Positions 4,190 to 50,385 of a DNA stretch of 64,000 bases are shown in pieces. The notes below the pieces were generated by a model. The model did no database searches. It was given only the letters and a program-made list of their open reading frames with translations, and was not told the DNA's origin. Where the stretch lies: assembly GCF_053078305.1 (NCBI RefSeq), contig NZ_CP166879.1. One strand, 5' to 3'. The translations under genes and the position numbers were made by a program. The number at the start of each line of letters is the position of its first letter. Positions within the stretch are counted from its first letter, which is position 1.

Positions 4190-5990
4190 GTGCAAACCTT
4201 TCAAGCCGATCTTGCCATTGTAGGCGCCGGTGGCGCGGGATTACGTGCTGCAATTGCTGCCGCGCAGGCAAATCCAAATGCAAAAATCGCACTAATCTCA
4301 AAAGTATACCCGATGCGTAGCCATACCGTTGCTGCAGAAGGGGGCTCCGCCGCTGTCGCGCAGGATCATGACAGCTTCGAATATCACTTTCACGATACAG
4401 TAGCGGGTGGCGACTGGTTGTGTGAGCAGGATGTCGTGGATTATTTCGTCCACCACTGCCCAACCGAAATGACCCAACTGGAACTGTGGGGGTGCCCATG
4501 GAGCCGTCGCCCGGATGGTAGCGTCAACGTACGTCGCTTCGGCGGCATGAAAATCGAGCGTACCTGGTTCGCCGCCGATAAGACCGGCTTCCATATGCTG
4601 CACACGCTGTTCCAGACCTCTCTGCAATTCCCGCAGATCCAGCGTTTTGACGAACATTTCGTGCTGGATATTCTGGTTGATGATGGTCATGTTCGCGGCC
4701 TGGTAGCAATGAACATGATGGAAGGCACGCTGGTGCAGATCCGTGCTAACGCGGTCGTTATGGCTACTGGCGGTGCGGGTCGCGTTTATCGTTACAACAC
4801 CAACGGCGGCATCGTTACCGGTGACGGTATGGGTATGGCGCTAAGCCACGGCGTTCCGCTGCGTGACATGGAATTCGTTCAGTATCACCCAACCGGTCTG
4901 CCAGGTTCCGGTATCCTGATGACCGAAGGTTGCCGCGGTGAAGGCGGTATTCTGGTCAACAAAAATGGCTACCGTTATCTGCAAGATTACGGCATGGGCC
5001 CGGAAACTCCGCTGGGCGAGCCGAAAAACAAATATATGGAACTGGGTCCACGCGACAAAGTTTCTCAGGCCTTCTGGCACGAATGGCGTAAAGGCAACAC
5101 CATCTCCACGCCGCGTGGTGATGTGGTTTATCTCGACCTGCGTCACCTCGGCGAGAAAAAACTGCATGAACGTCTGCCGTTCATCTGCGAACTGGCGAAA
5201 GCGTACGTTGGCGTCGATCCGGTTAAAGAACCGATTCCGGTACGTCCGACCGCACACTACACCATGGGCGGTATCGAAACCGATCAGAACTGTGAAACCC
5301 GCATTAAAGGTCTGTTCGCCGTGGGTGAATGTTCCTCTGTTGGTCTGCACGGTGCAAACCGTCTGGGTTCTAACTCCCTGGCGGAACTGGTGGTCTTCGG
5401 CCGTCTGGCCGGTGAACAAGCGACAGAGCGTGCAGCAACTGCCGGTAATGGCAACGAAGCGGCAATTGAAGCGCAGGCAGCTGGCGTTGAACAACGTCTG
5501 AAAGATCTGGTTAACCAGGATGGCGGCGAAAACTGGGCGAAGATCCGCGACGAAATGGGCCTGGCTATGGAAGAAGGCTGCGGTATCTACCGTACGCCGG
5601 AACTGATGCAGAAAACCATCGACAAGCTGGCAGAGCTGCAGGAACGCTTCAAGCGCGTGCGCATCACCGACACTTCCAGCGTGTTCAACACCGACCTGCT
5701 CTACACCATTGAACTGGGCCACGGTCTGAACGTTGCTGAATGTATGGCGCACTCCGCAATGGCACGTAAAGAGTCCCGCGGCGCACACCAGCGTCTGGAC
5801 GAAGGTTGCACCGAGCGTGACGACGTCAACTTCCTCAAACACACCCTCGCCTTCCGCGATGCTGATGGCACGACTCGCCTGGAGTACAGCGACGTGAAGA
5901 TTACTACGCTACCGCCAGCTAAACGCGTTTACGGTGGCGAAGCGGATGCAGCCGATAAGGCGGAAGCAGCCAATAAGAAGGAGAAGGCGA

Positions 5991-5998
<8 letters not shown>
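4190..5998 (+). CDS. frdA: Fumarate reductase flavoprotein subunit FrdA
   Basis: 602-aa ORF with GTG start; N-terminal FAD-binding motif [15 protein letters not shown]; followed by frdBCD. Confidence 0.95.
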
Positions 5999-7131
<1,133 letters not shown>

Positions 7132-9633: not shown

Positions 9634-9813
9634 ATCAGGCTCCGGAGAATTGGGGCCGTCCCCGGTGAAAAGAGGCGTTTGCAGGTCGTCCTGCAAAGCT
9701 GATGGTTGAACGGATATTTTGCCAGGTGGCAGAGGAATTTCAACTATTACCTTTGTGACTATCGCAAAAAAACAAACGGCACGACACAGCTGTCGTACCG
9801 TTATTGCTTATTG

Positions 9814-23875: not shown

Positions 23876-23951
23876 GCCCGGATAGCTCAGTCGGTAGAGC
23901 AGGGGATTGAAAATCCCCGTGTCGGTGGTTCGATTCCGCCTCCGGGCACCA
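23876..23951 (+). tRNA. pheU: tRNA-Phe (anticodon GAA), pheU-type locus
   Basis: 76 nt: GCCCGGA acceptor stem pairing with TCCGGGC, D-arm AGCTCAGTCGGTAGAGC, anticodon loop ATTGAAAAT (GAA), T-loop TTCGATT, 3' CCA; followed directly by an integrase gene. Confidence 0.95.
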
Positions 23952-32737: not shown

Positions 32738-33846
32738 TGTTTTTATCTCCTTTCATCAACACTGTAACAATACATATAAACATTAATATTATTAAAGATT
32801 CTCACCATCAATATTCGCAGTGAATAATGCAGCATCTCATATTCACATCCTGCAGAGAAAACCCCTCCGGAGAGGGGTGAGTGTAGCGTAATGGAGTGTT
32901 ATGTAGCATGGTGCCGGGTGCCTCCCGGTGAGTTCAGTATCAGCACCTGAACCCGCACAGATAAGGGATGTGACCAAACACCTACGATACTGATATGCCC
33001 CGCCGCTCAGGGGGATTCACCATGCAGTATTTTTTTAACAAATATCCCGTAAGACCGACAATAATCCACTGACTGAACTGTGAGGTATTTAACATTTACA
33101 GATGACTGACTGTGGTGATCAGAGGTATTACAGTCATCCCCCTGTGGCTGCAGTCCGACCATACCATAACCAGCCATACGTCTTACCCGGAAAGCAAATG
33201 GAGCTTTTTGCCATAAACAACACTCTCCGGCTTCAACAAATGGAGCAGAGAATATCTTCAGAAAGTAACAATCAGTTAAAAACAGATCTTTTTTGTATTC
33301 CGTAAATTTTTCAGAAGAGAAAAAGAATTAATTGTCGCCAACGCCTTCAACAGATCGCATCATCAACGAATGATAACAACCTGAAGGATACCGCGATGGA
33401 GTTGACTGTAGACCTGCTAAAAAACCTTAACAACATCAGACAAAATGCTACTATATATGTTCACGCATACCACTATACTGATGATGAAAAATGCGTTATG
33501 GTGCCACGGATATCTTTACCATCACTGAAATTAACTCCGTTGCAATCAGAAATAATTATTCTGACATCTTCTTAATGGAGTCAATTATATAAGGCACGAC
33601 GGGTATGTTCAGGGATATGAAGAAAAAAATGTGGCAACTTTCACAATACAGGAGGAGGGACACCATCGTTTCAAAGCAGACTTATCACAAAATGGGGAAA
33701 GTGATATAGCCAGCAATGTACTAAATCACTGGCTACATCGTATACATAAAACAGATATCATTGTTCTGTCTGTTGTTCTTACAGAATAAATCCTGTTACC
33801 TCCTGAATGTTACAAGGTTTTATATTTATCCTATGAGCATACGTAC

Positions 33847-46954: not shown

Positions 46955-47515
46955 TCAGCAGGGCTGTGCGACGATTCCATCACCCTGCAGACCAAACCGG
47001 TAACGCAGGGTGGTCAGTTGCTCCGCCATACGGCAGGCAGCATGCCATGTCCTGCGACGGGATATCCGTCCGGTAAACCGGTTCAGATAAATGACCTCAC
47101 GCGGTAACGGCTGATACCATCCTGTGTACTCGTTGCGATACATTCCCTGCCGGTAATACAGGCAGGGTGTCCAGACACCGCCACGACGGAACATACAGAC
47201 CCGCACGCTCAGATTGCCGGCCGGATTAGTGTACCAGCGACTGTAATATGACAGGTTATTGCGGGAAAAAAACACCCGCAACTGAGCCGTCATTCGCCGG
47301 AAAAAAGAAGAGATGCCCGGTTCAGGGCACAAAATAAACGTTGACATAAAGACTCCTGTAAAAAAACGGGAGCCTTCGCCCCGACGGACAAAAACTCCCG
47401 TCAGGGTTAAAACACCACCAGTACAGCATGGTGTTGCTGTCAGAAAAAGCCCGTTAATAAAGGGCGCAGTTATAAAGAAACCTTCATCGTCATGACTGAC
47501 GATATCTGCTCTCAA
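46955..47515 (-). CDS. Hypothetical protein; 5' part overlaps the left direct repeat so true start is uncertain
   Basis: 186-aa ORF; alternative start MSTFILCPEPG; possibly a prophage-remnant family but not confirmed. Confidence 0.3.
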   Translation of the reverse strand: MRADIVSHDDEGFFITAPFINGLFLTATPCCTGGVLTLTGVFVRRGEGSRFFTGVFMSTFILCPEPGISSFFRRMTAQLRVFFSRNNLSYYSRWYTNPAGNLSVRVCMFRRGGVWTPCLYYRQGMYRNEYTGWYQPLPREVIYLNRFTGRISRRRTWHAACRMAEQLTTLRYRFGLQGDGIVAQPC

Positions 47516-47773
47516 AGGTGGGCAGATTTACCACCACCAGAAACATCCTGGCTGCACATCCCCTTTCAGGTTACGGGGGTGTTGATCACCCGAAGGCGTT
47601 CCTCTCAGATCAACGGAACATTGGTGCCCACCGAAGCGGGATGTGGTCACCCGAAGGCGCTCCTCTCAGACCACTTATGGAGCATTGGTGGTCGCCGAAG
47701 CGACATGTAGCCACCCGAAGGCGCTCCTCTCAGGCCACTTGTGGAGCATTGGTGGTCGCCGGAGCGACATATA
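47449..47773. repeat. Direct repeat copy 1 (about 325 bp) with three degenerate tandem ~63-bp sub-units
   Basis: Near-identical to 49782-50038 over about 255 bp; sub-units begin CACCCGAAGGCG(C/T)TCCTCTCAG at about 47584, 47647 and 47711. Confidence 0.9.
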
Positions 47774-48168: not shown

Positions 48169-49086
48169 TTACTCATAGCCTAACAACTGACAATAAACCT
48201 GTTCAATATATCGTCCTCTGCCATCACCATGACCAAGATCAATTGATGTCAGTGCAAGTGCCTCCTTATAACTGTAACCGTTCATAATATGATATTTCAT
48301 GGCACTTGCAGCGTAACTGTACCGAAAACTGTGTGCAGTCTCATCTCTGCCTTTCAGTTCTCCATAACGACGTAATGTATTAAGATAATAATCCATTGCC
48401 GACTTAAGATTATCTCTGTCTATAAGACGTCCATTATGTTCACTGGCATATTTGAGTGCATAATTAACAGCATCAAGAACGTTATCCCGGTCAACAACCG
48501 TTGTCATTCTTTCCCGTCCCCCTTTCGTACCAAAAATCACTCTTATTTTTTCATCTCCCCGTTGTAACGCTTTTTTCCAGGTTCGTAATGATTTGGCCGA
48601 CTGGATAGCTTCTTCATTTCTCAGACCGAGGTAACGTGACAGTTTAACAACAGCAGCCACCCCTTTATCTTTTGCTTCCACACGCTGAAGAATCTCCCGA
48701 AAACGCTCATCCGTGATTAATTTTTTTGTTCCCTTACGACTGGAGCCGGAAATGCCTAACGCTTTATTGCTGAGACGAGGATGTTCGGGATCAGCCATCT
48801 TATATTTACCTGCCTGACGTAACATAACCCGTATTGCAGACATTTCATTTTCCCTTGTTCGCCCAGAAACATTATTCCGGCTTCTCATATATAGCTCAAT
48901 ATGCCGGACTTTTACCTGCGCGGCAGAACTGATCTGTACATTCATTTTTGCCAGACTTTCAGCAAAGCGGTGCATGATCCTGGTGTAATCACTCAGCTTC
49001 TTGAAGCTGCCTTTGTCTTTTCGAATGTGAGCAACCAGATCCTGTTTCAGTAATTTTTCACGTCTGGACATCAACTTCTCCTGCAC
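48169..49086 (-). CDS. Putative tyrosine-type site-specific recombinase
   Basis: 305 aa; C-terminal AHSFRYSYAASAM (H-x-x-R box) and LGHGDGRGRYIEQVY (His...Tyr) resemble tyrosine recombinase catalytic motifs; flanked by long direct repeats. Confidence 0.5.
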   Translation of the reverse strand: MQEKLMSRREKLLKQDLVAHIRKDKGSFKKLSDYTRIMHRFAESLAKMNVQISSAAQVKVRHIELYMRSRNNVSGRTRENEMSAIRVMLRQAGKYKMADPEHPRLSNKALGISGSSRKGTKKLITDERFREILQRVEAKDKGVAAVVKLSRYLGLRNEEAIQSAKSLRTWKKALQRGDEKIRVIFGTKGGRERMTTVVDRDNVLDAVNYALKYASEHNGRLIDRDNLKSAMDYYLNTLRRYGELKGRDETAHSFRYSYAASAMKYHIMNGYSYKEALALTSIDLGHGDGRGRYIEQVYCQLLGYE

Positions 49087-49120
49087 ATAATAATTTTTAC
49101 CTTAAACAGCTGTACGTTCG

Positions 49121-49171
49121 GCAGATGAGTTTTTCTGTTGTGCCGTGAACACAACAGAAAAACTCATCTGC
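49121..49171. other. Perfect 22-bp-stem hairpin 35 bp upstream of the recombinase start
   Basis: GCAGATGAGTTTTTCTGTTGTG - ccgtgaa - CACAACAGAAAAACTCATCTGC, arms exactly complementary. Confidence 0.85.
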
Positions 49172-49781
49172 ATTTCTCCCTGACGACACGGTTAAACGTT
49201 GCGATCCTTCGGGTAGTGACTGCCTGTGCGCCAGGGTAGCGCAGATTGTTTAGGTATTGAGGGGTAACAAATCGGTGTTGCACACCGACTGCAGCATTTG
49301 CTGTACCTGTCTCCAGGTCGCCCCCGACACCACCTCTAATAAGTGGTATCGCCGATTCGGCATCTCACTACATAAAACTCCTTAAAAAAACAATTGATTC
49401 TGCAAAAAACCATTTATGGACGTTATTCACAAAATCGTCCGTAAATTTGCAGAAGAGGTTGAAAAAACACTCTCACGCCGGGTCACTTCTTCAAATGTTA
49501 AAAAACATCACGTGAAACGGCAGTTCGTGCGGGTTCGTTAAGCAGACGCGCGTGCGTCACTTTGTCATCGTGACACGCTGACGAAAGTGACGCCGCGCAG
49601 CTTCAGACGCCAGATACACGCGTAAGCGACCAAATTTCAAATGGTCTTATACAGCGCGCACAGTCGCAGGAAGTGCTGGCAAACAAATGAAAAGAATAAA
49701 AGAAGTCAATACCGCCATTACGCAGTAAGAACATTCCGGCATCACCGGATGGATAAGGATCACACAACCACTGCTGTGTAT

Positions 49782-50038
49782 TGCCCGTAATAAAGGGCGC
49801 GGTTAAAAGAAACCTTCATCGTCATGACTGACGATATCTGCTCTCAAAGGTGGGCAGATTTACCACCACCAGAAACATCCTGGCTGCACATCCCCTTTCA
49901 GGTTACGGGGGTGTTGATCACCCGAAGGCGTTCCTCTCAGATCAACGGAACATTGGTGCCCACCGAAGCGGGATGTGGTCACCCGAAGGCGCTCCTCTCA
50001 GACCACTTATGGAGCATTGGTGGTCGCCGAAACGACAG
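49782..50038. repeat. Direct repeat copy 2 (about 255 bp, two ~63-bp sub-units)
   Basis: Matches 47449-47705 nearly base for base; diverges after GGTCGCCGAA. Confidence 0.9.
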
Positions 50039-50385
50039 ATAATGTATTCTGAGCATATCAGAGCGCATAAAAGGCGTCAATTATCCATGCTCCCTCACGA
50101 AACAGAAGCTGAACTCTTAACACCTGCTATCGGAACTCACTGAATAAACAACTAAAAAGGACATTGTGAAAATTAACATCAACAGTATGTAAAGTGATTT
50201 GTTTTGTCTTAAATGGGTGAATGTAAAAAAATATTCTATACAATCCACACATCCTTGTATCATATATCAAGTAAACATCCACAGAGATAACAGCTTATTT
50301 CAAATAAGCAGATTCTGTTTGATACTTCAGAAAAATAGTATATGCTCCTGATTTACTGATGTTATAAGTTATACAGGATAGTTAA

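Follow-up and report, generated by a model that had tools for sequence, protein, structure and literature searches.

What does a long, perfectly complementary hairpin do between a conjugation module and a gene annotated as an integrase? The question is raised by a 64,000-nucleotide stretch of contig NZ_CP166879.1 (NCBI RefSeq assembly GCF_053078305.1; the whole stretch is called the window hereafter), in which a hairpin with a 22-bp stem (hairpin 1, 49121–49171) and a second inverted repeat (IR2, 49554–49593) lie upstream of a minus-strand gene (48169–49071) for a 300-amino-acid 'integrase domain-containing protein'. An original prediction, made from the sequence alone, had taken the interval for a highly structured non-coding region in front of a recombinase gene and had offered several roles for the hairpin, among them a recombinase or regulator binding site, an RNA thermometer, an antisense element and a processing site. 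We find that the locus is of a known kind (that is, the transfer origin (oriT) and leader of a MOB_M relaxase gene in an integrative conjugative element (ICE) of MPF_G type), the layout of which has already been described for related elements. Our specific answer, that the interval belongs to the oriT-and-RNA leader of an MpsA-type MOB_M relaxase gene and that hairpin 1 is the 3′ boundary stem-loop of a transcript containing the RNA motif EFASI, is held tentatively and at slightly less than an even chance.

Both inverted repeats are far beyond chance. The arms of hairpin 1 (49121–49142 and 49150–49171, 22 nt each) are complementary at every position, as the original prediction had stated, and enclose a 7-nt loop that reads UUCACGG on the gene's strand (minus), between EFASI and the relaxase-like gene. 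A search of the rest of the 64-kb window for a further copy of an arm, with up to three mismatches allowed, returned none (0.00 expected by chance), and the predicted folding energy is −37.5 kcal/mol as RNA (z = −10.3) and −25.9 kcal/mol as DNA (z = −10.7). The distance of 35 bp from hairpin to start codon given previously had been counted from a mechanically assigned GTG at 49086; measured from the ATG at 49071 annotated by RefSeq, which has AGGAG in front of it, the distance to the hairpin is 50 nt, with 36 nt between the stem and AGGAG. With the stem thus clear of the Shine–Dalgarno sequence and, at −37.5 kcal/mol, too stable to melt, we reject an RNA thermometer. An antisense element found no support either, because the −10 element of the sole plus-strand promoter-like site (49065–49094) is not conserved in the related locus rl0044 and the number of such sites is near the shuffle expectation. 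An intrinsic terminator is rejected on the basis of the tails of the hairpin (sense, CGAACGUA; antisense, AUUUCUCC; no U-tract on either), of a terminator scan that reports it on neither strand and of homologous hairpins that lack a consistent U-tract. Matches of hairpin 1 to microRNA families in Rfam are below threshold and only reflect the long stem.

Comparison between loci shows what has been kept in this hairpin. Among four variants from Escherichia coli, three stem positions differ and every change is compensated, such that all variants stay perfectly paired except for a terminal G·T in one of them (L207). A second group of loci has a 19-bp stem of unrelated sequence with a similar loop (TCACNNNG, compared with TTCACGG in the window); across its 11 sequences, all 209 of 209 cells pair and 10 of the 19 pairs have changed on both sides, a degree of covariation reached by 0 of 500 shuffles, whereas slid registers pair in 31–44% of cells. 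A metagenome scan for further variants returned 127 matches, nine of them genuine, and all nine are perfect 19-bp stems with new compensated variants. The loop is 7, 8 or 9 nt long among near-identical stems, and its 5′ half (TCAC) is kept while the stem varies. In a tree of the relaxase-like proteins, the 13 loci that have the 19-bp hairpin group in a single deep clade, every member of which has kept it; the E. coli type belongs to another clade, in which relatives have imperfect hairpins or none. The E. coli form occurs in 53 of 5,426 genomes, the same number as the full locus including the gene, all 53 gene-carrying genomes keep the 22-bp stem, and the hairpin is not dispersed elsewhere in the genomes that carry it, so that a dispersed palindrome resembling REP or MITE elements is rejected. 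Across the family, the position of hairpin 1 is a low-occupancy stretch of our alignment of 81 loci (77 species-level loci, drawn from 80 that were retrieved and covering 1,050 nt upstream of the gene, together with the window, rl0044, SGI-4 and EDL933): among about 80 species, a long perfect hairpin is found in 14, an imperfect extended one in about 25 and none in the rest. The hairpins of sister lineages at this position are imperfect, and some of them have several G·U pairs on the sense strand. The alignments thus indicate selection of hairpin 1 for pairing rather than for sequence, and an element that is stably inherited and lineage-specific; the check that the original prediction had set, conservation of the palindrome in homologous elements, has a split outcome, with strong conservation within two lineages and absence from the rest of the family.

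The gene behind the hairpin is the key to its setting. Its product matches the Pfam family PF12835 (Integrase_1; 4.6e-55) and also PF12834, and shares 52% identity, over 98% of its length, with WP_033567157.1 of SGI-4, which we had retrieved independently of any seed list and which is one of the MOB_M seed sequences (bioRxiv 10.64898/2026.01.13.699239). The MOB_M relaxases (TcpM, MobK and MpsA), which occur in MPF_G ICEs, are tyrosine-recombinase-like proteins, that is, distant kin of the tyrosine recombinases, and are sometimes annotated as integrases (bioRxiv 10.64898/2026.01.13.699239). An MpsA homologue, encoded at an SGI1-type locus that we located with a published SGI1 primer as probe, matches PF12835 above threshold (4e-11) and aligns with the family of the window protein in hhalign at 89.6% probability, with the motifs GLRxEE and GTKGGRxR in common. 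Given this homology to a published seed, the Pfam family shared with the MpsA homologue and the hhalign alignment, the 'recombinase' of the original prediction is best read as a putative relaxase of the MOB_M type. Residues typical of tyrosine recombinases are invariant in the family (R151, K183, H247, R250, H281 and Y288/Y293). The protein has more than 1,000 homologues; those that are named among the 120 matches listed are all from Enterobacterales, and more distant relatives among the matches listed sit on plasmids of Burkholderiaceae and Vibrio. A sequence-based search for relatives of solved structure found none, and an NCBIfam search with the protein gave no match.

The surroundings agree with this assignment. 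An identical stretch is found in the chromosome of E. coli FHI_NMBU_10, and the locus lies within an ICE of the TIGR037xx/PFL_4703 (MPF_G) type. The stretch without convincing open reading frames (ORFs), put at about 700 bp before, is indeed ORF-free and is longer, about 1.3 kb (49072–50385); TIGR037xx/PFL_4703 ICE genes, genes of the type IV secretion system (T4SS) and TraG flank it on the right and the relaxase-like gene on the left, and co-oriented with the latter are a block of hypothetical genes followed by genes for ArdC, LPD29, DUF1281 and a methylase. The position of the gap, between TraG/T4SS genes and the gene, agrees with the layout stated for the MOB_M module (bioRxiv 10.64898/2026.01.13.699239), a likeness that is positional only. 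In FHI_NMBU_10, the same ICE carries a separate tyrosine integrase gene adjoining tRNA-Phe and also encodes a TraI-domain protein and a UvrD-like helicase.

Much of the structure in the gap is accounted for by two Rfam motifs that the original prediction had missed, one inside its interval and one flanking it; its description of the region as non-coding and highly structured is otherwise borne out, and the structure is tied to the adjacent gene. EFASI (RF02957) lies at 49214–49371 on the minus strand with 53.2 bits, above its gathering score of 51.2, and covers part of the interval, with hairpin 1 outside it. STAXI (RF01728) lies further upstream at 49872–50037, also on the minus strand, with 91 bits against a gathering score of 40.5. 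Rfam describes EFASI as 'Frequently Around STAXI and Integrases', located downstream of STAXI and upstream of integrase genes and with no assigned function, and the documented order is matched here (STAXI 50037–49872, EFASI 49371–49214 and the gene 49071–48169, all on the minus strand). In a survey of 16 diverse homologous loci, EFASI was found on the gene's strand upstream of the homologous gene in 15 (64–98 bits) and STAXI upstream of the gene in 12; in every locus tested, the strand predicted for both motifs is that of the gene, and the upstream STAXI is conserved across the family. STAXI was described in 2010 and EFASI in 2017, and both RNAs have been detected experimentally in other strains. 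Neither Rfam model includes hairpin 1 or IR2.

The 81-locus alignment has a constant order of STAXI, a variable stretch, IR2, EFASI, a conserved block AACCGTGYCGTCGGGG, a variable segment, a ribosome-binding site and the gene, and this leader layout is found across about 80 species of Enterobacterales. The block (49178–49193 on the minus strand; AACCGTGTCGTCAGGG in the window) is nearly universal in the family. Its 3′ part (49178–49189) pairs with 49226–49236, a segment that is unpaired in the Rfam model of EFASI; in this helix, 90.7% of cells pair, compared with 31–47% in slid registers; three of its pairs show compensatory changes, and its many U·G pairs are possible on the gene's strand only. 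It appears to be a 3′ extension of EFASI by about 36 nt and, as modelled, would enclose the 3′ strand of the outer helix of EFASI in a pseudoknot-like topology. The extension helix lies beside hairpin 1, and the structured RNA would therefore reach to within a few nucleotides of it. Directly upstream of STAXI, a consensus scan found a sigma-70-like promoter candidate on the minus strand (50052–50080; TTGACG, a 17-nt spacer and TATGCT with a TG extension) in a stretch that is not conserved across the family. The same kind of scan found no promoter-like site on the gene's strand between hairpin 1 and the gene.

IR2 is conserved in a different manner. Its arms are GCGTCACTTT (49554–49563) and AAAGTGACGC (49584–49593), exactly as first predicted, and with a 20-nt internally paired spacer and GC-rich complementary flanks (49545–49601; no strand assigned) they fold into a longer imperfect hairpin of −36.2 kcal/mol. 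Together with its flanks, IR2 is the most conserved part of the intergenic region (identity of 0.70–0.86 at an occupancy of 1.0 in the 81 loci); 77 of 84 loci have it, 72 of these 77 with a spacer of 19–20 nt. The 10-bp arms pair in 99.7% of cells with eight of the ten pairs invariant, and the inner stem within the spacer covaries (four or five pair types at two positions and an alternation of C–G with U–A at a third). IR2 therefore looks like a folded hairpin with sequence-specific arms, as would be expected of an element recognized by a relaxase, and we propose it as a candidate for the oriT core, that is, the relaxase-recognition hairpin. The suggestion of a recombinase binding site is plausible for IR2 and less so for hairpin 1. 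Between STAXI and IR2 lies a further small inverted repeat (49628–49646; GACCA...TGGTC, and GGCCA...TGGCC in SGI-4) with an identity of 0.5–0.6 across the family.

Three related elements help to place these parts. The intergenic architecture of SGI-4 is directly homologous (STAXI, IR2 as GCGCGGTGTCACTTG...CAAGTGACGCGCGC (L208), EFASI and the conserved block), but what it has in place of hairpin 1 is merely a short stem with imperfect pairing. The segment that corresponds to 49180–49676 of the window, with EFASI and IR2, is kept at about 77% identity in more than 600 E. coli genomes, most of them of O157 type with a tellurite-resistance (TAI) island, which have lost the gene. A preprint (bioRxiv 10.64898/2026.01.13.699239), citing Neupane et al. 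2025, describes the TAI islands as oriT-only hitchers, the oriT region of which is 60% identical to the experimentally localized oriT of SGI-4. IR2 and EFASI are thus retained in these islands, and the relaxase-like gene and hairpin 1 are missing. As hairpin 1 is lineage-specific and missing from the TAI islands, we regard it as an accessory element and not as the core origin. The homology between ICE and TAI islands stops at 49180, 9 nt from the edge of hairpin 1 (L003, about 5990–6000); beyond this point, EDL933 has an unrelated tandem duplication of about 115 nt beside remnants of IS66.

The third element is SGI1. Its oriT is followed by the functional core, about 277 nt long, of an RNA termed sgm-sRNA, a hairpin-like element next to the start of mpsA and mpsA itself, which is very weakly expressed, with the gene of a partner protein, mpsB, just behind it; a primary transcript from the promoter P5 crosses oriT, sgm-sRNA is essential for mobilization, and the authors inferred that the functional transcripts end near the hairpin-like element and suggested that this is a termination signal or RNase site (Kiss et al. 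2019, PMC6414798; Nagy et al. 2021, PMC9299015). The window matches this order in position, with IR2, about 380 nt containing EFASI and its extension, hairpin 1 and 50 nt to the ATG, and thus has on one strand a promoter candidate, a structured 5′ RNA, a GC-rich inverted repeat, an RNA domain of about 300 nt, a stem-loop at the start codon and the gene. The promoter candidate corresponds in position to P5 (ttgacg-16-taatat), which is also carried by the SGI1-type locus found with the primer probe, and the window protein is in the same Pfam family as the MpsA homologue, with a profile comparison that supports homology. The two systems differ in their stem-loop (an imperfect 9 bp in SGI1 and a perfect 22 bp in the window) and in their mode of transfer (SGI1 is a mobilizable island, whereas the locus in the window belongs to a self-transmissible MPF_G ICE with a TraI-domain protein). 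Membership of an SGI1-type module is only partial, in that protein family and layout match, whereas EFASI is not detected in the SGI1-type locus and no counterpart of MpsB was found.

On the basis of these comparisons, we propose that a minus-strand transcript, probably initiated near 50050, crosses STAXI, IR2 and EFASI as a single RNA on its way to the gene; that IR2 would be the sequence-specifically recognized hairpin of the transfer origin; and that hairpin 1 would close the EFASI-containing RNA on its 3′ side. It could do so as a processing site and/or a block to 3′ exonucleases and could also be a partial barrier to read-through, such that the boundary stem-loop would define the end of the mature RNA and keep expression of the relaxase gene low. 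The processing site suggested by the original prediction agrees with this scheme, which is itself a proposal. We favour a role at the level of RNA because of the SGI1-like geometry, the extension helix of EFASI, the detection of STAXI and EFASI RNAs, and the presence of a promoter-like site before STAXI and of none after hairpin 1. Selection for pairing rather than sequence, the variation in loop length between 7, 8 and 9 nt and the imperfect sister hairpins with G·U pairs on the sense strand also point in this direction. Perfect helices of 19–22 bp, or about two helical turns, are about the minimal length of RNase III substrates, and the uninterrupted helix measures 22 bp in the window and 19 bp in the other clade. 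Hairpin 1 resembles RNase III processing stems and 3′ stabilizer hairpins in having such a helix in a predicted transcribed leader without a U-tract, and differs from them in its near-absence of G·U pairs, which is not required there.

Several observations weigh against this proposal. Without a U-tract on either strand, hairpin 1 is not a classical terminator. Its roughly 20 stem variants are almost purely Watson–Crick, with a single internal G·U, whereas the extension helix of EFASI is full of U·G pairs; such a pure pattern is what a constraint at the level of DNA, or homogenization by template switching, would produce. Attempts to identify the acting strand do not decide the matter: a strand test by G·U asymmetry had only three non-Watson–Crick cells to draw on in the perfect hairpins, and although the sense strand folds better than the antisense strand in 39 of 41 leaders, we reject this bias as strand evidence because G+T-rich composition explains it (shuffles; P = 0.40 for the non-perfect hairpins), so that the folding test identifies no strand. 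Most members of the family lack a long hairpin, and the role of hairpin 1 is thus dispensable or performed differently in the rest of the family. The comparison with SGI1 has gaps as well: Rfam detects neither EFASI nor STAXI in the SGI1-type locus, EFASI is not detectably homologous to the sRNA region of SGI1, and no counterpart of MpsB was found, the downstream ORFs of the window (107 amino acids), SGI-4 (195 amino acids) and the SGI1-type locus being mutually dissimilar and without a Pfam match.

The Watson–Crick purity of the stem leads directly to the most serious alternative, in which hairpin 1 acts as DNA, either as a folded single strand or as an extruded cruciform in the transfer-origin region. 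It might then be an accessory site of the relaxosome, signal the end or the recircularization of the strand being transferred, or prime synthesis of the complementary strand in the recipient. Cruciform extrusion and stable DNA hairpins need perfect complementarity, and all variants are perfectly Watson–Crick with almost no G·U or G·T despite changes at 10 of 19 positions; the TCAC half of the loop is kept while the stem varies, as it would be in a recognized loop, and the hairpin, at −25.9 kcal/mol as DNA, lies in a region that others have assigned to oriT. We nevertheless consider this alternative unlikely on balance, given that hairpin 1 is missing from most of the family and from the oriT-only TAI islands, which keep IR2 and EFASI, and that the invariant arms expected of a recognition site belong to IR2 and not to hairpin 1.

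The geometry of the hairpin also recalls a site bound as double-stranded DNA by a protein dimer, be it an operator for autoregulation by the adjacent protein or a core site like those of lox and dif. It has the inverted arms and asymmetric 7-nt spacer of a tyrosine-recombinase core (7–8 bp in lox and dif), lies directly upstream of the gene, and the protein has invariant residues typical of tyrosine recombinases. Near-identical arms with spacers of 7, 8 or 9 nt are, however, at odds with a fixed cleavage geometry (core sites have 6–8 bp), the single compensated changes between close relatives along the whole 19–22 bp point to base pairing instead of protein contacts, most of the family lacks the hairpin, and an operator would have no detectable promoter to control. 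The window also holds no second copy that could be a partner site. Hairpin 1 thus does not fit a lox/dif-like core, and the dimer-bound site as a whole is improbable. Finally, quasipalindrome correction is a known mutational process, and hairpin 1 might be a palindromic insertion without function, the perfect pairing of which is due to intrastrand template switching in replication and not to selection. This would account for compensated changes without G·T pairs and for a patchy distribution in the family; it would not lead one to expect a diverging stem of exactly 19 bp in the same place in 13 of 13 species of the deep clade and in nine metagenomic copies, nor the 22-bp form in all 53 gene-carrying E. 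coli genomes with no dispersal elsewhere, and of the explanations considered we give it the least credence, as very improbable.

Hairpin 1 is a small accessory element in itself, and its context matters more. In a family of ICEs that is very common among enterobacteria, the orphan motifs EFASI and STAXI flank the transfer origin and the relaxase-like gene, the 'integrases' behind the names of these motifs would, judging by homology, belong to the newly recognized MOB_M class, and IR2 is a concrete candidate recognition element common to the ICEs and to their possible hitch-hikers, the O157 TAI virulence islands. In the literature searched on EFASI or STAXI, we found nothing on relaxases or oriT. 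The covarying perfect hairpin, the family-wide IR2 and the additional EFASI helix appear to be undescribed in that literature, as does the link between EFASI/STAXI and MOB_M/oriT with its positional analogy to sgm-sRNA. A bolder proposal, which we put forward as doubtful, assigns to EFASI and its 3′ extension (joined in some lineages by the perfect hairpin that closes it) the part that sgm-sRNA plays in SGI1; in the ICEs, it would be a structured RNA that is transcribed across oriT and is a required component of the MOB_M relaxosome. If this were true, RNA-dependent initiation of conjugative transfer would be widespread in the MPF_G ICEs of Enterobacterales, and two orphan Rfam motifs, the associated 'integrases' of which would be relaxases, would gain a function.

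Further features of the locus were noted. A second STAXI copy (47476–47641 on the minus strand; 75.7 bits) follows the relaxase-like gene and a small ORF, and a downstream copy is also present in eight of the 16 other loci surveyed (L004, L006, L008, L011, L019, L022, L047 and L208); STAXI copies thus bracket the oriT–relaxase unit in many species. In a Brenneria locus without STAXI (L065, 3346–3482), the radC RNA motif (RF01754) occupies the equivalent place upstream of EFASI and the relaxase-like gene, which suggests that the two motifs may be interchangeable there. At the 5′ edge of EFASI is a 'start–stop' (49369–49386 on the minus strand), consisting of AAGGAG, 4 nt and ATG-TAG, that is invariant in the window, rl0044 and EDL933; SGI-4 has TAAGGAG at this place, and the feature is not conserved family-wide. 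Immediately in front of the relaxase-like gene, an upstream ORF of five codons (ATG TGC AGG AGA AGT TGA; 49072–49090 on the minus strand) ends in a TGATG overlap with the start codon and is missing in rl0044, in which the gene begins with GTG. A 41-amino-acid ORF on the plus strand (49416–49541) is annotated in rl0044 as a hypothetical protein of 95 amino acids (L002, 6506–6790); it is probably not coding, as the window and EDL933 have a stop codon and the frame in EDL933 is also broken by indels.

Beyond this ICE family, genes resembling PF12835 occur on small plasmids typed as 'non-mobilizable'. The 8.2-kb Caballeronia plasmid p4 (L209) carries such a gene together with a separate tyrosine recombinase gene, a combination that would make sense if the PF12835 protein were an overlooked relaxase rather than the resolvase. 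Far from the locus, the window is not collinear with the FHI_NMBU_10 chromosome (the position of a tRNA is offset by about 8.6 kb), and the other Rfam matches in the window are a guanidine-II riboswitch (9651–9697, minus strand), a tRNA (23876–23948, plus strand) and the sRNA STnc100 (32852–33054, minus strand).

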